This document shows, in pieces, positions 1-8,811 of a stretch of 64,000 nt of DNA. The first letter of the stretch is position 1, and every line of letters begins with the position of its first letter. The DNA comes from Planctomycetota bacterium (GTDB lineage Bacteria > Planctomycetota > UBA1135 > UBA2386), in contig OZ245838.1 of the NCBI GenBank assembly GCA_965228735.1, positions 3,584,001-3,648,000 on the forward strand. Reading direction: 5' to 3'. A model generated the notes under the pieces. It was given only the letters and a program-made list of their open reading frames with translations, was not told the DNA's origin and did not search any database. A program made the position numbers and the translations under genes.

Positions 1-1279
1 CGGCAGCGGCGGCGTCGAGCCGGCAACGCCCGCGACCGGGAGGCCGGAACAGGCCCCGGCCGCCGCGACCGGCAACGCCGGCGAGCCCGCCCAGGGCACG
101 GGCGACACCCAGGCGACCGGCTCCGGCATGGTCGCGCCCAACAACGCGCTGACGGCCCCGGGGGTCCAGGGCGCCTGGGATACGTTCACGGCCGCCTGGA
201 GCCAGGACCCGAACAACAACGAGTGGAACACGGCCCTGGCCGACATCGCCAAGAACGGGCGGTATCGCAAGAGCCCGCGCAGCACGCTGTCGCTGAGCAC
301 GTTCGACAAGAACGGCGAGGCCGGGGTCAACCCGCCGAGCGGCGCCGCCGGCACCGACAAGATCAACGGCGACGGCCTCGAGAAGATGCTCAAGTACGTG
401 ACGGGCGTCGCCTCCAACGTGGGCGATAACCGCGGCCGCAGCTTCTCCTCCAACCCGCTCGACGACGTCTACAACTTCGAAGGCAACGCTTGGGGCTCGC
501 GCGTCCGCGCCTGGATCGGCGACAACATCACGCTGCGCGTCGGTGACGAGTACACCTACGCCGACGTCTCACGTGTCGTCAGCATCGGCACCGGCGGCTA
601 CTCGATCTCCGAGGAGCACGGCGACACCGACGACAAGACCTACCACTTCGGCAACGCGACGACCTACAGCAAGCACACGGGGAACACCGACTCCGAGTCG
701 CACGTCGAGGGGGACTCCGACTCCTACAGCTTCGTGCACGGCCAGGACACCAGCGTCTCGCTGACGTTCGGCGCCGGCGCGACGTTCTCCCTGCACGTCA
801 GCGCCCGCACCGACAACTCGGTCACGCTCGGCGCGTTCAACTCCAACTCGCTCAAGGTCGGCGTCTTCGGCGGCCTCGAGATCTCCGTCGCTCCCAAGAT
901 CGAGATCGAGATCGGCCTGCAGGTCGGCGCGCTCGACCTGACCGCCTGGCAATGGCAGGTCGGACTCAACCAGTCGAGCATGGTCATGAACAAGAGCGAC
1001 GTGAAGCTCGCGCAGCAGGAGGTCGACCTCAACAAGACGATGGCCCGGCTGCTCGGCACGAAGGCCGCGGTCTCGGAGACGGACAACAAGCTGCTCGAGA
1101 TGCAGAACAAGTTGTCGGCGACCGAGAACGCGCTCAACAGCAACAACGCGGTGCTCGCGAAGGCCATGACGCACCTCAACTGCAACATGGCCAACCTGCA
1201 GATGAACGAGACCAACCTGCAGACCTTCGACCTCGGGCTCCTGCGCTCCAACACGGCCGCTCTGCACAGCATCACCTGA
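1..1279 (+). CDS. C-terminal part of a VgrG-like contractile-injection spike protein (5'-truncated by window edge)
   Basis: The frame of ORF 128..1279 is open back to base 2. It has Gly-periodic beta-strand repeats (HGDTDDKTYH/FGNATTYSKH/TGNTDSESHV...) followed by heptad repeats. It lies directly upstream of DUF2169/pentapeptide/DUF4150/DUF3540 genes, the position VgrG occupies in such modules. Confidence 0.6.
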   Translation, partial: GSGGVEPATPATGRPEQAPAAATGNAGEPAQGTGDTQATGSGMVAPNNALTAPGVQGAWDTFTAAWSQDPNNNEWNTALADIAKNGRYRKSPRSTLSLSTFDKNGEAGVNPPSGAAGTDKINGDGLEKMLKYVTGVASNVGDNRGRSFSSNPLDDVYNFEGNAWGSRVRAWIGDNITLRVGDEYTYADVSRVVSIGTGGYSISEEHGDTDDKTYHFGNATTYSKHTGNTDSESHVEGDSDSYSFVHGQDTSVSLTFGAGATFSLHVSARTDNSVTLGAFNSNSLKVGVFGGLEISVAPKIEIEIGLQVGALDLTAWQWQVGLNQSSMVMNKSDVKLAQQEVDLNKTMARLLGTKAAVSETDNKLLEMQNKLSATENALNSNNAVLAKAMTHLNCNMANLQMNETNLQTFDLGLLRSNTAALHSIT

Positions 1280-1297: not shown

Positions 1298-4200
1298 ATG
1301 ATCCACAAGAACCTCACGCCCTTCTTCTGGGGCCCGAAGGTGACCTCGCGCAAACCGCCGCAGGTCGAGATGACCGTGTGCGTGCGCGGCGTGTTCCGTC
1401 TGTCGCCGAACGGGCCGCTCGAGGCGATCGAGGACCCGATGGAGCAGGGGTTCATGACCGGCGACACGTTCGCCGAGGCCGACCTCGATCAGACCGGCCC
1501 GCTGCACTACGCGAGCGACTTCGCGGACTGGAAGCTCAACGCCGAAGCGCTGCTCAAGGGCGCCGCCTGCCCGCCGGGCGGTCCGGGGCGCGAGTGCACC
1601 GTGCGGTTCGCGGTCGGCGACTGGCACAAGAGCCTGCGCGTCGTCGGCCCGCGCGCCTACAAGCCGGGTCTGCTGCTCGGCGGCAAGGCGAGCGAACCGC
1701 AGCTGTTCGACCGGATGCCCCTGACCTGGGAGAACGCGTACGGCGGCCCGGGCTACGCCGACAACCCGGCCGGCCGCGGGTTCGAGGGCGAGGAGCTGCC
1801 CACGGTCGAGTACGCCGATCAGCCGGTGAAGAAGGTCGGCCAGAAGAACGTCGCGCCCGCGACGTTCCTGCCCGTCAGCCCGCGCTGGCCGTCGCGCGCC
1901 GGCAAGCGCGGCAAGAACTACGGCGCCGCCTGGCGCAAGCAACGCGCGCCGTTCTTCGCCGACGACTTCGACTGGACGCACTTCCACTCGGCCGCGCCCG
2001 ACCAGCAGCTCGACGGCTACCTGCGCGGCGACGAAGAGATGACGTTCGAGAACCTGCACCCGCAGGCCGAGCGTTGGAGCCAACGACTCCCGGGGCTGCG
2101 CATCCGGGCGTTCGTCAAGACGCTCGACGGTCAGATCGTCGAGCCCGAGATGAACCTCGACACGCTGTTCGCCGACCTCGACGACGGCAAGCTCTACCTC
2201 ACGTGGCGCGGCCTCAGTCCGATCCGGGAGATCGACATGACGGACGTCGGCGCCGTCCTCATCGCGTCCGAGCCACTGACCGAGCCGCCCCGGCCCGAGC
2301 AGGTCTACCTCGACCAGCTGCAGGAGTTCGAGGCCGACCCGGTCGGGATCAACGCCGCGCTGCCGCCGGGCTTCATGATGGTCGCCGACGCCGTCGAGGC
2401 CGCGGAGCAGGCGGAGCTCAACGAGACGCCGATGCCGGACCTGCAGGCCGTCGCCGACAACCTGCCGGAGGACTGCCCGTTCCCGCCGTGGTTCCTCGCG
2501 GCCGTCGGCGGCAACGACGACCCGCTCGGCGTGATGGACGCGATCCCCGAGGAGCTGCGCTCGGCCAACCCGCTCGCGGGCGTGGCCGGCGAAGCCGGTC
2601 AGGTCGCCGACCCGAAGAAGATCAAGGAGCTGCAGGACGCGGCCGGCGAGGTCGCGACCGACCCGGCCGCGGCCGTCAAGGTGCTCGGCGCGCTCGCCGG
2701 CATGCTGCCGCCGGAGAAGCAGGCCCCGTTCAAGGCCGGGCTCGAACAGATGCAGAGCGCGTTCGAGACGATCGAGTCGAGCCAGGGCCCCGACTTCCTG
2801 AAGAAGGCGGTGAAGGAGGCCCCGAGCGGCGAGGCCAAGAACGCGGCCGAAAGCTACGCGGAGCTCACGGACCAGGCGGGGCAGGGCCTCGACCAGGCCG
2901 GCGACGGCGGCGCGGCGGCCAAGGCCCAGCTGGAACAGGTGCCGACGGACCTCGACGCCGCGGCCAAGGAACCGCTCGCGACGCTCGACGACATCGAGCT
3001 GCCCGAGGTTCCGGAACTTCCGGACACGGACGCCGAGCTCGCCGCACATGCGGAGAAGCTCGCGACGGACGAGGCGAGGCTGCGCAAGAAGTTCGGCGAC
3101 CACCCGATGCTCGGCATGTTCGACCTCGGCCGCAACATGATCGAGACGGCGCCGCGCGCCGGCGACCTCGTGCCCGACTTCAGCCCGCTGCTGTCGGAGC
3201 TCTCGCGCGTCGAGGACGTGCTCGCGGCGCAGGGCCTGTCCGCGGCGGCGCTCGCGCCGCTCAAGCGGCTGACGGGCAAGGTCAACGCGCTCGTCGACGA
3301 GCTCCCGCAGCCGACCCCGCTGCCGGATGGCGAGTTCGTGCGGCAGGATCTGCGCGGCCGCGACTTCAGCGGCCAGGAGCTCGAGGGCGCCGTGTTCTGC
3401 AAGTCGGACCTGACGGGCAGCAAGTTCGTCAACGCGAAGCTCACGGGCGCCGACTTCCGCAAGGCCGACCTGACGGGCGCGGACCTGACCGGCGCCGTCC
3501 TGACCGACGCCGACTTCAGCGGCGCGCGGCTGCCCAAGGCAACGCTGCGGGACGTCCACGCCACGGGCGCCAACTTCGGCAACACGGAGCTCGGCCAGGC
3601 CGACGCGAGCGGCGGCGACTTCGGATCCGCGAAGTTCACCAAGGCGATGGGCGTGAAGCTCGTCCTCGCGGGCGCGAAGCTCGAGAACGCCGACCTGCGC
3701 TTCGTCGACTTCTCCAAGGCGGACCTGCGCGGCGCGACCATGACCGGCGCCGACCTGTCGTTCTGCACCTGCGCCGGGGTGAAGGCCGACGGCGCGGACC
3801 TCAGCGACGTCGTGTTCGACATGGGCAAGCTGACCAAGTCGCGGCTCGCGGGCGCGAAGCTCACGGGCGTCCGGAGCAACATGGGGTCGTTCGTCGGCTC
3901 GGACCTCTCCGACGCGGACCTCAGCGGCTGCGCGTTCGAGAAGGTCGACCTGATGAAGGCGAAGCTCGACCGCGCCGACCTGCGGAACGCCAGGCTCGTG
4001 CAGCTCACGCTGCGCGACACCCAGGCGACCGGCGCCGATTTCCGCGGCAGCGACATGTCACGCTGCTCGGCGACGGGCGCCGCCAGGTTCGTCGAGTGCG
4101 ACTTTCGCGACGTGACCGGCAATCGCTCGGTGTGGATGGACGCCGATCTGTCGCGCTCCAATTTCCGCCACAGCACGTTCCTGCACGCGTTCTTCCAATC

Positions 4201-4477
4201 CTCGCACGGTGAGGACGTGGACTTCACGGCCGCGGTGCTCGCCCAGGCGAGCTTCCGCAAGGTGAAGTTCGAACGCGCCTCGTTCGCCTACGCGGACCTC
4301 GCCGGCGTGATCTTCCAGGACGCGATTCTCGATGACGGCGACTTCCGATCGGCCAACTGCTACGACGCCAAGTTCCTCGGCGCGAAGGCCGTGCGCTGCA
4401 GCTTCGAGGACGCGTTCCTCGTCGCCGTGCAACTCGACGATCCCGATCAACAGCAGCCCGGAGGGGCGACGGCATGA
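1298..4477 (+). CDS. DUF2169 T6SS adaptor domain + helical linker + pentapeptide repeats (TagAB-like)
   Basis: DUF2169 motifs (SDFADWKLNAE, MPLTWENAYGG, NPAGRG, FDWTHFHSAAPDQQL, LDTLFADLD) in the N-terminal ~315 aa; A(D/N)LxG-type pentapeptide repeats from ~3330 to the end. Confidence 0.9.
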   Translation: MIHKNLTPFFWGPKVTSRKPPQVEMTVCVRGVFRLSPNGPLEAIEDPMEQGFMTGDTFAEADLDQTGPLHYASDFADWKLNAEALLKGAACPPGGPGRECTVRFAVGDWHKSLRVVGPRAYKPGLLLGGKASEPQLFDRMPLTWENAYGGPGYADNPAGRGFEGEELPTVEYADQPVKKVGQKNVAPATFLPVSPRWPSRAGKRGKNYGAAWRKQRAPFFADDFDWTHFHSAAPDQQLDGYLRGDEEMTFENLHPQAERWSQRLPGLRIRAFVKTLDGQIVEPEMNLDTLFADLDDGKLYLTWRGLSPIREIDMTDVGAVLIASEPLTEPPRPEQVYLDQLQEFEADPVGINAALPPGFMMVADAVEAAEQAELNETPMPDLQAVADNLPEDCPFPPWFLAAVGGNDDPLGVMDAIPEELRSANPLAGVAGEAGQVADPKKIKELQDAAGEVATDPAAAVKVLGALAGMLPPEKQAPFKAGLEQMQSAFETIESSQGPDFLKKAVKEAPSGEAKNAAESYAELTDQAGQGLDQAGDGGAAAKAQLEQVPTDLDAAAKEPLATLDDIELPEVPELPDTDAELAAHAEKLATDEARLRKKFGDHPMLGMFDLGRNMIETAPRAGDLVPDFSPLLSELSRVEDVLAAQGLSAAALAPLKRLTGKVNALVDELPQPTPLPDGEFVRQDLRGRDFSGQELEGAVFCKSDLTGSKFVNAKLTGADFRKADLTGADLTGAVLTDADFSGARLPKATLRDVHATGANFGNTELGQADASGGDFGSAKFTKAMGVKLVLAGAKLENADLRFVDFSKADLRGATMTGADLSFCTCAGVKADGADLSDVVFDMGKLTKSRLAGAKLTGVRSNMGSFVGSDLSDADLSGCAFEKVDLMKAKLDRADLRNARLVQLTLRDTQATGADFRGSDMSRCSATGAARFVECDFRDVTGNRSVWMDADLSRSNFRHSTFLHAFFQSSHGEDVDFTAAVLAQASFRKVKFERASFAYADLAGVIFQDAILDDGDFRSANCYDAKFLGAKAVRCSFEDAFLVAVQLDDPDQQQPGGATA

Positions 4478-6609
4478 GCTGGCAAACGCTCGATCGTGAC
4501 GCGGTCCTGCTGCGGAAGCAGAACGGGGAACCGCTCGCGCACTGCACGCTGTCCGACCTCGACCTCGCCGGCGCCGACCTGTCCGGCATGGACCTCTCGG
4601 GCGCCGTCCTGGAGCGCGTCGACCTGCACGGCGCCGATCTGTCCGGCTGCAAGATGGCGGGCGCGACCGTGTATCAGTGCAACCTGGAGGGGTGCAAACT
4701 CGACGGCGCGGACCTCGCTCAGATGCACTGGCTCGAGGACAACCTCGTCGGCGCGACGTTCGCCGGCGCGCGGATGCCCGAGAGCCAGCTCGTCGACTGC
4801 AAGCTCGCGGACGTGAGCCTCGCCGGCCTCGACCTGACGAAGACGGTCATCGCCAAGAGCGATGCGCCGGGACTCGACCTCCAGGGCGCGAAGCTCCGTG
4901 AAGGCTCGATCGTCGGGACCGAGCTGCCGCGCGCCAACCTCGAGGGCGCTGACCTGTCGGGCACGATGGTGCCGATGTGCAACCTCGAGGGCAGCAACCT
5001 CGATCGGATCGAGCTGCAGGGCGGCGGCTTCCCGCGGTCCAGGCTCGCCGGCGCGACCCTGCGCTCGGCCAGGCTGACCGACGCAGCGTTCGCCGATGCG
5101 GACCTGCAGAACGTCGACTTCAGCGGCGCAACGATCGTCCAGACGATGTTCATCAACGCCGACATGCGCGGCGTGACGCTGCCGGCAACCGAGCTGCAGA
5201 GCCTGATGTTCAACGGCTCGAACCTCACCGGCTGCGACCTCTCGCGGACGAGGTTCAGGAAGTGCATGTTCGACGATGCGACGCTCGATGGCGCGACGTT
5301 CGGCGCGACGACGATCCAGGAGTGCATGGCCAACGGCGCGAGCTTCGAGAACGCCGACTTCGGCACGATGCGGCTCGAGAAGATCATCATGGAGCGCGCG
5401 GTCCTGCGCGCCGCCGACCTGTCGCGCGTCACCGTCGATGTGGTCAAGATGCCGAAAGCGGATCTGCGTGCGGCCAAGCTGCCTCAGGACCTCGTGAACT
5501 GTTCGATCGCGAACGGGCAGGTCGATGCCGACGCCCTGCGCGGCAAGAACCTCGAGGGCTGCGACCTGGAGGGCATCGACTTCCGCGGCTACTGCTTCGA
5601 CGACTGCAACCTGCACCGCGCCTCGTTCCGCAACTGCCAGGTCGAGGGCGCGAGCTTCGAGAACGCCAACCTCGAGTGGGCGATCTTCGACGGCTGTGAC
5701 CTGACCGGGGTCAACCTGCGGGGCGCGAAGCTCGGCAGCGCGAGCCTCGGCAAGGCGAAGCTGCCGAACGCCGACCTCGCGGGCTTCGACCTCACGATGA
5801 CGCGCTTTCCTGGCGCGGACCTGTCCGGCACCGATTTCACCGGCGCCAAGCTCTGGATGACGGACCTGTCGGAGTCGGTCCTGCGGCAGGCGAACTTCAC
5901 GAAGGTGAAGTGCAAGAGCACCAACATGGCCTACGCGGACATCGCGGGGCTGATCCTGCAGGACGCGGAGCTGCACTGCGACCTCAGCGATCTCGACTAC
6001 GACCATCTCCCGTTCCAGGGCCAGGTGATGTCACGCTGCTCGTTCCGCGGCGCGGACCTCGACGGCCGCGACCTCAGCGACTGCGATCTCACCGGCAGTC
6101 TGTTCCACATGGCGAGCCTGAAGGGCGCCAACTTCAAGGGCTCCAAGCTGACGATGGCCAACTTCGCCGAGGCCGAGCTCGACGGCGCCAGGTTCGAACG
6201 CGTCGACGGCAAGCTCGCCAACTTCGCGAACGCGCGCCTGCACGAGGCCGACTTCACGGGCAGCAACCTGCGCAACGCGATCCTGCCCGACGCCGACGCC
6301 ACGGGCGCCAACTTCAGCGACTGCGATCTGCGCGAGTCGGTCTGGACGACCGCGAACGCGACGGGCGTGCTCTTCGTCGGCGCCAACCTCAAGCACGCCG
6401 ACATGAGCTATGCCACGCTCGATTCGGCCGTGCTCGAGGGCGCCGATCTCACGTGGGCCAACCTGCACGGCGTGCTGCAGAAAGACACGCAGTGGTCCGG
6501 CGCGCTCCGCATCAAGATGAAGGACACCGACGACGACCGCCTGCACGGCGAGCGCACCTACAAGCCGCCGACCGCGGCCGAGCTCGAGCAGCTCGGAGGC
6601 CACTCATGA
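4474..6609 (+). CDS. Pentapeptide repeat protein (TagB-like)
   Basis: Almost entirely A(D/N)(L/F)xx repeats (ADLSG, ANLEG, ANFKG); ATGA overlap with the upstream gene. Confidence 0.92.
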   Translation: MSWQTLDRDAVLLRKQNGEPLAHCTLSDLDLAGADLSGMDLSGAVLERVDLHGADLSGCKMAGATVYQCNLEGCKLDGADLAQMHWLEDNLVGATFAGARMPESQLVDCKLADVSLAGLDLTKTVIAKSDAPGLDLQGAKLREGSIVGTELPRANLEGADLSGTMVPMCNLEGSNLDRIELQGGGFPRSRLAGATLRSARLTDAAFADADLQNVDFSGATIVQTMFINADMRGVTLPATELQSLMFNGSNLTGCDLSRTRFRKCMFDDATLDGATFGATTIQECMANGASFENADFGTMRLEKIIMERAVLRAADLSRVTVDVVKMPKADLRAAKLPQDLVNCSIANGQVDADALRGKNLEGCDLEGIDFRGYCFDDCNLHRASFRNCQVEGASFENANLEWAIFDGCDLTGVNLRGAKLGSASLGKAKLPNADLAGFDLTMTRFPGADLSGTDFTGAKLWMTDLSESVLRQANFTKVKCKSTNMAYADIAGLILQDAELHCDLSDLDYDHLPFQGQVMSRCSFRGADLDGRDLSDCDLTGSLFHMASLKGANFKGSKLTMANFAEAELDGARFERVDGKLANFANARLHEADFTGSNLRNAILPDADATGANFSDCDLRESVWTTANATGVLFVGANLKHADMSYATLDSAVLEGADLTWANLHGVLQKDTQWSGALRIKMKDTDDDRLHGERTYKPPTAAELEQLGGHS

Positions 6610-7538
6610 TGCCGGCCGCGAACCAGGGGGTCGGCATGAACACCGGCTTCCCCGACGTCTGCGCGACGCCGACGCCCGCCGGGCCGGTGCCGATCCCGTA
6701 TCCCAACATCGGAATGAACGCGATGGCGATGCCGTTCATTCCCAACGTGCTCGTGTCGATGGCGCCGGCGCAGAACATGGGCAGCAAGCCGCTCATGACC
6801 AACGGCGACAACGCGGGCGTCGCCCACCCGATGGTCATGATGCCGGGCGGCACGATGATGGGGAATCCGAAGATCCTCATGGGCGGCATGCCCGCGGGCC
6901 ATCTGCTCAACCCGACCTACGGGAACAACATGAACGACGCGCTCGGCGCGAAGACCGTGCCGAGCGTGACGAACGTCCTGCTCGGCGCGCTCCCGGCCGT
7001 CAGCGCCGACCCCGACGCGGCCGCCCGCCTGCACGGGCGACCCGGCACGATCACGATCGGCGCGGGTGACGTTGCCGTTCTGCGGCTCGACTGCATCACG
7101 TTGACGGGCGATCGGTGGCTCGCCGAACGACTTCAAGGGCTCGCCGTGAGCTCCGCGCGCGGCATCGTCGTCGACCTGCGCGGCAACCCGGGCGGCGCGG
7201 TCGCGACGGCGCAGCGGCTCGCGGCGATCCTCACCGCGATCGGTCAGCCGCTCGCCATCGCGATCGATCTTCGAACGGCGTCGGCCGCCGAGCTGCTCGC
7301 GGCGACGCTGCGCGAGCGCGCGGGCGCCCGCGTGTTCGGCGAGACGACCGTCGGCAAGGGCGTCGCCCGCCTGCATCTGGTGACTGCCGCCGGCGTACGA
7401 CCGACCGGCCCGTTCGTGGCGATGCCCATCGGCGAGCCCGCGGCGTTCCACCTACGCGGCATCGCACCGGACCGCGTGTGCCCGGCCGACGAGGCTGTCG
7501 ACGAAGCGATCCGCTGGCTGCGAGGAACGGCGCGATGA
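6606..7538 (+). CDS. PAAR-like DUF4150 tip protein fused to a C-terminal S41 (Tsp/CtpA-like) peptidase domain
   Basis: N-terminal FPDVCATPTPAGPVPIPYPNIG is the DUF4150 signature. The C-terminal domain has VVDLRGNPGG, TASAAELLA and GETTVGKG. Start ATG 6606 overlaps the upstream stop (ATGA); it lies inside track ORF 5910..7538. Confidence 0.85.
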   Translation: MMPAANQGVGMNTGFPDVCATPTPAGPVPIPYPNIGMNAMAMPFIPNVLVSMAPAQNMGSKPLMTNGDNAGVAHPMVMMPGGTMMGNPKILMGGMPAGHLLNPTYGNNMNDALGAKTVPSVTNVLLGALPAVSADPDAAARLHGRPGTITIGAGDVAVLRLDCITLTGDRWLAERLQGLAVSSARGIVVDLRGNPGGAVATAQRLAAILTAIGQPLAIAIDLRTASAAELLAATLRERAGARVFGETTVGKGVARLHLVTAAGVRPTGPFVAMPIGEPAAFHLRGIAPDRVCPADEAVDEAIRWLRGTAR

Positions 7539-8299
7539 GTGTGCCGCAGAAACCCGGCGCCACCGACTGGCTGCACGTCTACCTGCCGCTCGGCTGCAAG
7601 AACGGCGACAACTGGACGCCCGTCGGCGGCGCGTTCCTGCTGCTCGATCAGCCGATGCTCTGGCTCGTGACCGCGACCTCGGCGATCACGGCGGCAGGCG
7701 GCGCACCGGTGTCCACCTGGGTGCGGACCGCGGACGGCGTCGTGTTGCTCGACGTCACGGACAGTCAGCGGCGTTCGGGGCTCGACTGGATCCACCACCC
7801 CGCGGGCCTCAGCGCGTCGCTGTTCCCCGCCGACCCCAAGTTCAAGCTCAAGGCATTCACCGAAACGCAGTGCACCCGCGTGCGCAACCTGCGACCGCTG
7901 CAACCCGCAGCCGCGATCGGGCAGCTCTATGGTGCCGACTTCGACCCGTCTCCCGCCCGCTCCCCGGCGGTGCTCGACGGCATCGTCTCGGCGGTCGATG
8001 AACGCAGCGGCGCGGTCCTCGCGACGGCGCCGCTGCTGCCGCGCAACGCCGGCGCGCCGTTGCTGCTGGCCTCGCCCTACGGCGGCGACGTGACGCTCGC
8101 GGGCGTGTTGCTCGACAACTCGATCGTCCACGAGGCGGACCCGCGCACGCTGCCCGTCCGACTCAGCCGTTCGATCTGCGTCGACGCCGCGCTCGAGTTG
8201 ATTCGCGGCGACGATGCGAAGACGCAGCGGGCGCGAGTCACGGCGTCCACCGAGTCGGCGAACACGCCGAACGCAGACTCGACCGGAGGCGACTCGTGA
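7535..8299 (+). CDS. Trypsin-fold-like protein lacking the catalytic triad (putative pseudo-protease)
   Basis: GGAFLL..WLVTATSA, WIHHPAGLSASL and PRNAGAPLL..LAGVL mirror the trypsin-like motifs GTGFL..LVTAxH, HP..DxA and PGNSGGP..LxG, with the catalytic residues replaced. ATGA overlap at 7535. Confidence 0.55.
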   Translation: MSVPQKPGATDWLHVYLPLGCKNGDNWTPVGGAFLLLDQPMLWLVTATSAITAAGGAPVSTWVRTADGVVLLDVTDSQRRSGLDWIHHPAGLSASLFPADPKFKLKAFTETQCTRVRNLRPLQPAAAIGQLYGADFDPSPARSPAVLDGIVSAVDERSGAVLATAPLLPRNAGAPLLLASPYGGDVTLAGVLLDNSIVHEADPRTLPVRLSRSICVDAALELIRGDDAKTQRARVTASTESANTPNADSTGGDS

Positions 8300-8811
8300 G
8301 CACGATCCGCGTCGGACCCGCGCGCGTGCTCGAGATCCTTCCCGACGGGCGCCCGCGCGTGCAGCTGCTGACCGGCGACTGCCGGCGGCTCGTCGCGGAC
8401 TGGGCGCTGCCGTTCCGCTACGAGCCAGCCACCGCCGATCTCCTGCTGACGATCCACCGGGGTGATCGGGCGTGGGTCACGGGCGTCGTCACGGGTCGGG
8501 GCCACAGCCGCCTCGCGTTCGCGGGCGATGTCGAACTCGCGGCCACGGGCGAACTCGCGGTCGGCGGCGCCGGTGGCGTCCGCATCGCCGCTCCCGAGGT
8601 CGCGATCCACGCACCGCTCCAGGAATGCGAATCCGAAGAAACCGTTCAACGGATCGGTGATCTGGACACCACGGCTACGCTCGCGCTCGACGAACGCGCC
8701 GGGGAGTGCGAGCGCACGATCGACGGCGACGACGACCAGCTTGCCGCCCGCCACAGCACGGTGGCACGGCATCGGGTGAAGATCGACGGCGAGTTGCTGC
8801 GCCTGAGCTAG
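8296..8811 (+). CDS. DUF3540 family T6SS accessory protein (TagC-like)
   Basis: N-terminal OB-like segment (ALPFRYEPATADLLL...WVTGVV), beta-repeat C-terminus ending VKIDGELLRLS; GTGA overlap; typical context. Confidence 0.7.
   Translation: MSTIRVGPARVLEILPDGRPRVQLLTGDCRRLVADWALPFRYEPATADLLLTIHRGDRAWVTGVVTGRGHSRLAFAGDVELAATGELAVGGAGGVRIAAPEVAIHAPLQECESEETVQRIGDLDTTATLALDERAGECERTIDGDDDQLAARHSTVARHRVKIDGELLRLS

Follow-up and report, generated by a model that had tools for sequence, protein, structure and literature searches.

The PAAR-like–S41 fusion gene

The stretch of DNA analysed here, hereafter the window, comprises 64,000 nucleotides (positions 3,584,001 to 3,648,000 of contig OZ245838.1, assembly GCA_965228735.1) from a bacterium of the phylum Planctomycetota. 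At 6606..7538 of its forward strand, on which all features of this gene lie, it carries a single open reading frame (ORF) of 310 amino acids (P0001) in which a PAAR-like spike tip of a type VI secretion system (T6SS) is fused to a protease core of family S41. ATGA overlaps join this ORF to its neighbours at both ends, tvpB upstream and the gene at 7535-8299 downstream. A preliminary description made from the bare sequence had proposed this architecture, with a DUF4150 tip of about 125 residues, and the Pfam search bears it out: PF13665 (Tox-PAAR-like, that is, DUF4150) matches residues 10-110 with 88.8 bits against a cut-off of 31, and PF03572 (Peptidase_S41) matches with 54.1 bits against a cut-off of 24. 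Published work is cited below by PubMed Central number.

The tip domain (residues 1-126, 6606..6983) contains at residues 29-32 (6690-6701) the sequence PIPY, an instance of the P(I/V)P(Y/F) motif of spike tips as defined in PMC11883445. It is followed by a short linker (residues 127-144, 6984..7037), delimited from the structural model and a PDZ profile, that stands in the place of the PDZ domain, and by the S41 core (7038..7523), which is 25 residues shorter than the cores of CtpB type. As the preliminary description had stated, there is no PDZ domain: neither Pfam nor a profile derived from the linkers of 52 CtpA-like housekeeping proteins shows one. No export signal was found in the fusion, whose N-terminus is the tip domain and which has no hydrophobic stretch. 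The core contains the DLRGNPGG motif (residues 190-197, 7173..7196), the predicted nucleophile Ser226 (7281..7283) within TASAAE (224-229), and the predicted general base Lys251 (7356..7358) within GKG (250-252). Ser226 and Lys251 are exactly 25 residues apart, the spacing of the Tsp/Prc type that had been reported for them, and align with the SASASE...GKG of Helicobacter pylori CtpA and Bacillus subtilis CtpB; the best solved relatives by sequence include CtpA, CtpB, and Prc.

Two features of the core had been overlooked. The distance from DLRGNPGG to the serine is 36 residues, as opposed to 61 in 82 of the 100 relatives measured, and between the two motifs the alignment with CtpB shifts by 25 residues. 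Judging by their position, the missing residues likely correspond to the β-k/l hairpin of CtpB, which helps that enzyme to dimerise (PMC3808539). We also considered the protease cap as the missing part and rejected it, since the cap described in PMC3808539 consists of helix a3 and strands a/n/o and the β-k/l hairpin, an insertion of 27 residues, fits better. Furthermore, alignment to CtpB places Arg255 (7368..7370), four residues after the lysine, where CtpB has Gln338 of its Ser309-Lys334-Gln338 triad (PMC3808539).

An assembly artefact is an unlikely source of the short core. When the region 6300-8500 was compared with four sequencing runs, two of them contained it as one contig with zero differences or gaps, although these two are near-identical to the window and either may be the source of its DNA; the third run covers the region in pieces, and the fourth covers part of it with one low-depth difference. 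None of the runs listed as containing this DNA was an RNA data set. In addition, a homolog of the fusion with 95% identity exists, and the short spacing is common to 21 fusions.

The AlphaFold2 model of the fusion, based on an alignment of 150 sequences, has a predicted local distance difference test (pLDDT) score of 91 and a predicted template modelling (pTM) score of 0.74, with a single weak stretch at residues 126-133; the tip domain is modelled at a pLDDT of ~95. A helix predicted at residues 138-143 of the linker, close to this low-confidence stretch, may substitute for the cap helix of CtpB. Foldseek gave CtpA and CtpB as the top matches, and a wider structure aligner ranked active CtpB first (Z 20.1, root-mean-square deviation 2.7 over 172 residues), aligning residues 128-306 of the model with CtpB 89..478; the S41 half filled both lists. 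Membership of S41 is indicated by both the PF03572 match and the predicted core fold.

Type VI secretion genes and the tip module

Upstream of the window lie, in order, tagH, tssJ, tssK, tssL, tssM, tagF, tssA, tssB, tssC, hcp, tssE, tssF, tssG, clpV, and vgrG, so that all 13 core genes tssA-M, plus tagH and tagF, directly precede the module, all of them above the curated cut-offs. The vgrG gene begins before the window and extends into it with its 3' end (1..1279, forward strand). It is followed, on the same strand, by tvpAB (1298..4477), which encodes a tip chaperone with a DUF2169 domain (PF09937, 256.8 bits) and pentapeptide repeats, by tvpB (4474..6609), which encodes a pentapeptide-repeat protein, by the fusion, by the gene at 7535..8299, and by tvpC (8296..8811), which encodes a DUF3540 protein. 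These assignments rest on Pfam and on PMC13373197. The module, with TvpAB, TvpB, TvpC, VgrG, and a DUF4150 tip, has the class III Tvp layout of PMC13373197, which is synteny type C of PMC11883445, and the cognate DUF2169 gene expected beside a DUF4150/PIPY tip is present. The genome, which is 93% complete, has one match to DUF4150, one to vgrG, and none to PF05488; accordingly, the fusion is the sole PAAR-type tip found, and it adjoins the sole vgrG found. Eight other S41 genes are encoded elsewhere in the genome.

Several other genes accompany the module. A second copy of the DUF3540 gene (tvpC) precedes vgrG upstream of the window (L002:17720-18313, genome C1:3581720-3582313; PF12059, 67.6 bits), and the same duplication is seen in genome G013. 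Between clpV and this copy, a gene for a protein of 239 amino acids (L002:16982-17701, genome C1:3580982-3581701) has no Pfam match and no usable Atlas match; it is conserved in G013, in locus L169 a homolog separates the fusion from the trypsin-fold gene, and it may thus be part of the tip module. Directly after the module (8974-9558, forward strand) lies a gene for a sigma factor of the extracytoplasmic function (ECF) type (TIGR02999, 120.5 bits, just below the cut-off), and a Polyangiaceae fusion locus (L137) likewise has an ECF-type sigma factor gene directly downstream. The next gene (9622-11265, forward strand) encodes an unannotated protein of 547 amino acids; at several related loci tvpC is followed by a homolog of this gene, so it may be linked to the T6SS. 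In locus L158 (G186:C454), the fusion gene directly follows clpV and no tvp genes adjoin it. Two Sorangium/Polyangiaceae loci have ORFs of 370-590 amino acids before tvpAB (L004:2695-5112 and L005:3495-5255) that have no VgrG match in Pfam, are weakly similar to the VgrG tail of the window (E 7e-4), and are possibly stand-alone spike extensions. A low-GC stretch at 55640-60661 (reverse strand) is an ordinary rRNA operon (16S, 23S, 5S).

Distribution and conservation of the fusion family

Three homolog searches, of which the best 120, 120, and 150 matches were listed, yielded 373 proteins, at least 252 of them with both domains and 15 with the tip only; the counts that follow refer to these listed matches. 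Eight fusions that lack one of the three motif columns were dropped, leaving 244 to be scored. Serine and lysine are both kept in 241 of the 244 (20 of the 21 that lack the hairpin), a share that is possibly inflated because the searches were seeded with the query and its motifs, and the glycine pair G196 and G197 is kept in 250 of 252. The hairpin is absent from 21 of the 244 fusions, and a PDZ domain is present in only 18. The PDZ-bearing fusions (L133:8001-9272, P0033, and their kin) show a peculiarity of their own, having Glu in the place of the triad Gln in 12 of 18 cases, the same change that kills CtpB.

Named members of the family come from Myxococcota (Sorangium, Polyangiaceae, Minicystis, Byssovorax) and Planctomycetota, and the named close homologs of the fusion from Planctomycetota. 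The full fusion occurs in two of the 60 whole genomes of relatives, and seven of 401 genomes of the phylum, G000 included, give a match at E <= 1e-60. A scan that covered two of 64 parts of the genome contigs was dominated by housekeeping S41 genes, with two fusions among 80 loci. Five carrier genomes were checked for TssM and TssC; both exceed the cut-off in four, and the fifth is a fragmented draft.

In a quick FastTree phylogeny of 107 sequences and 135 columns, in which 40 ordinary fusions and 18 housekeeping genes had been sampled at random, the hairpin-less sequences of planctomycete type cluster with a support of 0.95 and one more joins them at 0.80. All fusions cluster at a weak support of 0.68, and the tree carries no claim on the origin of the fusion or on the order of events.

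The S41 part diverges faster than its surroundings. In local alignments to six related loci the S41 part has 38-45% identity, while the tip reaches 75-80% and the remaining module genes mostly lie at 45-59%, and the ratio of nonsynonymous to synonymous substitution rates for the pair L116/L122 is ~0.3 for the S41 part and 0.01 for the tip. Among 15 hairpin-less sequences, whose S41 parts have a median identity of 41%, just 15 of 161 positions are invariant; these include G196, G197, T224, A225, S226, A228, E229, G250, and K251. The combination of a rapidly changing surface with an unchanging active site is consistent with an effector. RBP3 is a non-catalytic protein with the S41 fold. It has a similar serine motif and lacks the lysine at that place in four modules, so catalysis is better indicated by the retained lysine than by the serine motif.

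The downstream trypsin-fold gene

The gene that directly follows the fusion (7535..8299, forward strand) encodes a protein with no Pfam match and no signal-like N-terminus. Atlas points towards trypsin-like families at 0.97, and its model (pLDDT 90, pTM 0.87) is a two-barrel trypsin fold that matches Esp, HtrA1, and MucD (Foldseek E ~3e-8 to 5e-8); a sequence search of solved structures gave no match for the family. The protein appears to be a pseudo-protease without the His/Asp/Ser triad: in 24 of 24 aligned sequences WL(V/I/L)T is not followed by His and N-x-G-x-P lacks its Ser; we take these places, from the familiar motif rather than from a structural overlay, to be those of the catalytic residues.

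Twelve distinct loci without the hairpin were reached through the fusion and extend beyond it (three of them are near-identical; L123, which ends without downstream DNA, is not counted). In all 12 this gene comes next, as it also does in L133 and L165. None of the six Sorangium/Polyangiaceae loci has it after the fusion, nor do L130, L132, and L164, while L131 and L162 leave no room for it. Conversely, five of 201 genomes have a strong match to the trypsin-fold protein, and in all five the fusion lies just upstream. Because the carriers are kin and not independent, we regard this as a conserved pair and not as co-evolution. Complex prediction for the full fusion and the trypsin-fold protein gave a score of 0.01 (mark 0.32) and, as controls were not folded, is evidence neither way.

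Comparison with known systems

The architecture as such is not new, contrary to what the preliminary description had implied, and is already catalogued as a prediction in myxobacteria. Supplementary file 2 of PMC8651086 contains six PAAR_E1-Peptidase_S41_CPP proteins from Sorangium cellulosum So ce56 and Chondromyces apiculatus, predicted to be 'Peptidase toxins', which the portion of the main text available to us does not discuss, and PMC8285248 notes an S41 domain at the C-terminus of a PAAR4 representative from Sorangium (S. cellulosum AGP36489.1). The supplements of PMC13373197 and PMC11883445 may list such fusions too, and S41 is not mentioned in the first 300,000 characters of PMC3482391. 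No functional study of such a fusion was found in the literature searched, which left most subscription papers outside. New here are the planctomycete form, the minimal core, the status of the fusion as the only tip found in its genome, and the pseudo-protease partner gene.

The Sorangium and Chondromyces entries have the same two-domain architecture in 327-378 amino acids, and the Sorangium/Polyangiaceae loci have the same Tvp neighbourhood. However, the myxobacterial members that we fetched keep the hairpin (spacing 61-62 in five of six loci), occur in 2-4 copies per genome, and have no trypsin-fold neighbour, whereas the planctomycete fusion is single-copy and lacks both the hairpin and the Gln. 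Compared with the class III Tvp module of Serratia marcescens (VgrG1-Paar1, TvpAB, TvpB, TvpC; PMC13373197), the same five gene types are present, but the planctomycete has an enzyme domain on its tip, an additional gene for a trypsin-fold protein within the module, another DUF3540 gene upstream of vgrG, and a vgrG that is the sole one found, not an alternative one.

With the S41A proteases (B. subtilis CtpB, 4C2C; Pseudomonas aeruginosa and H. pylori CtpA; Escherichia coli Prc) the fusion shares the core fold, DLRGNPGG, and the Ser/Lys spacing; in contrast to them, it lacks a signal peptide, the N-terminal helical or dimerisation part, and the PDZ domain, has 25 fewer residues before the serine, and has Arg in place of Gln. 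The generalisation that S41 enzymes are PDZ-gated, on which the preliminary description had drawn, needs qualification, because an S41 enzyme without PDZ is known in the nisin resistance protein NSR, which consists of a helical bundle, a cap, and a core (PMC4698656). NSR (4Y68) matches the model with Z 16.1; unlike the fusion, it is a membrane-anchored enzyme with a Ser-His dyad and a defensive role. The downstream protein, for its part, resembles UmbA of the Streptomyces umbrella toxins (PMC11062931): both have a trypsin fold whose triad is incomplete and are encoded in a toxin locus, and the fold matches of the downstream protein include an Umb1 chain at rank 27; it differs in having no lectin domain, and the likeness is at the level of the fold only.

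Predicted function of the fusion

Our preferred reading, in which we place moderate confidence, is that the fusion is an injected, fast-evolving effector whose tip-borne S41 protease cuts proteins of the target cell. Of the interpretations considered, the specialised effector put forward in the preliminary description is still the best, with the activity of the enzyme presumed. An enzyme domain stands at the C-terminus of a spike protein, as expected of such effectors, and PIPY domains often bear C-terminal toxins (PMC11883445). The proposed mechanism would start from the vgrG-tvpAB-tvpB-tip-tvpC module behind a full T6SS core, with the fusion as the sole tip. Judging by work on Serratia and Vibrio, TvpAB would shield the PIPY surface and TvpC would hold the pre-complex until VgrG replaces it, and every fired spike would therefore carry the protease. 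The predicted CtpB-like core, with its conserved Ser226, Lys251, Glu229, and glycine pair, would catalyse as a Ser-Lys dyad; without a PDZ domain there would be no C-terminal recognition, and the enzyme would thus act as an endopeptidase on extended segments. The step of which we are least sure is that the downstream triad-less protein would serve as a cytoplasmic partner that restrains or chaperones the protease.

Several observations weigh against this reading. The Q338E exchange abolishes the activity of CtpB (PMC3808539), and the fusion has Arg255 at that place; within the family, Gln is found there in 145 of 244 fusions but in only three of the 21 without a hairpin. Loss of the PDZ domain makes CtpB constitutive but abolishes the activity of Prc (PMC6686036). 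The 'intact' dyad of the preliminary description thus stands insofar as Ser and Lys are kept and under selection, and 'ungated' insofar as PDZ is absent; neither term is established, because of the exchange of Gln for Arg255 and the opposite effects of PDZ loss in CtpB and Prc, and we use both 'active' and 'ungated' as presumptions from the sequence. Fast divergence of the S41 part is equally compatible with relaxed selection. Finally, a conserved gene that could be a cognate immunity gene follows the fusion in the loci of planctomycete type, but the six Sorangium/Polyangiaceae loci share no downstream gene and have no evident immunity gene.

Some of these points suit a different, rather unlikely explanation, in which the wider family is active but the planctomycete branch without the hairpin has weak or no enzymatic function and persists as a binding module, which might bring along the trypsin-fold protein or other cargo on the tip. 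Along with the PDZ domain and the hairpin, this branch has mostly lost the Gln that is essential in CtpB, and the neighbour is itself a pseudo-protease, of a kind that acts as an adaptor in umbrella toxin particles (PMC11062931). Against it, Ser and Lys belong to the few invariant positions (15 of 161), and the Lys is the one that RBP3 lacks; the family also seems tolerant of the loss of Gln, because most of the PDZ-bearing fusions have Glu there.

In PAAR-VgrG spikes the C-termini of VgrG meet the tip, where the protease would be tethered here, and it might act on its own spike, trimming TvpAB, TvpB, or TvpC during assembly or cutting the long VgrG tail after firing and so freeing a hidden toxic piece. 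VgrG is ~1000 amino acids long with a variable low-complexity tail, whose end is nonpolar in several loci and not in others (a point that bears on the idea of a Tsp-type degron), a cleaved-off VgrG peptide with no known protease has been proposed for Serratia VgrG1 (PMC13373197), and self-processing would account for the absent immunity gene in myxobacterial loci. We nevertheless consider it unlikely: stand-alone tips without S41 occur in class III Tvp loci of a same-genus genome (L117) and of Sorangium/Polyangiaceae genomes (L143, L145, L146), so that assembly does not in general require the protease; the presumed substrates TvpAB, TvpB, and TvpC are better conserved than the S41 part; and the fusion of G186 has no tvp gene beside it. 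The same loci with stand-alone tips weaken the alternative of the preliminary description, maturation of the spike or cleavage of the pentapeptide chaperones. Delivery of the protease outside or onto cells in a non-killing role, such as the digestion of proteins on the surface of prey or of a host, algal or animal, or the inactivation of peptides as by NSR, which cleaves a peptide antibiotic, is quite improbable. The lack of an immunity gene in the myxobacterial loci agrees with it, and contigs of a coral metagenome run cover most of the stretch almost unchanged; against it, the characterised PIPY fusions named in PMC11883445 are antibacterial effectors.

The preferred reading, an injected protease effector, has a more specific version for the planctomycetes, a new effector-partner pair in which a minimal Ser-Lys S41 endopeptidase, without PDZ, hairpin, or Gln, sits on every fired spike, and a dedicated cytoplasmic pseudo-protease of trypsin fold restrains or loads it; this version we regard as doubtful. 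If true, the pair would provide the first characterised case of an S41 weapon in a T6SS, and a trypsin-fold pseudo-protease acting as an immunity or gating protein would, to our knowledge, be of a kind not previously described.

Implications

S41 proteases are known as gated housekeeping enzymes. The fusions, with at least 252 sequence clusters, form a family that has moved onto T6SS spike tips in Myxococcota and Planctomycetota and has mostly shed the PDZ domain. If active, they would form a new class of protease effectors and a natural test of how far an S41 enzyme can do without the PDZ domain, the hairpin, and the Gln. The pseudo-trypsin partner and the fusion make a concrete, testable pair, and, because the fusion is the sole tip found in this genome, it would define what the T6SS of this planctomycete delivers.

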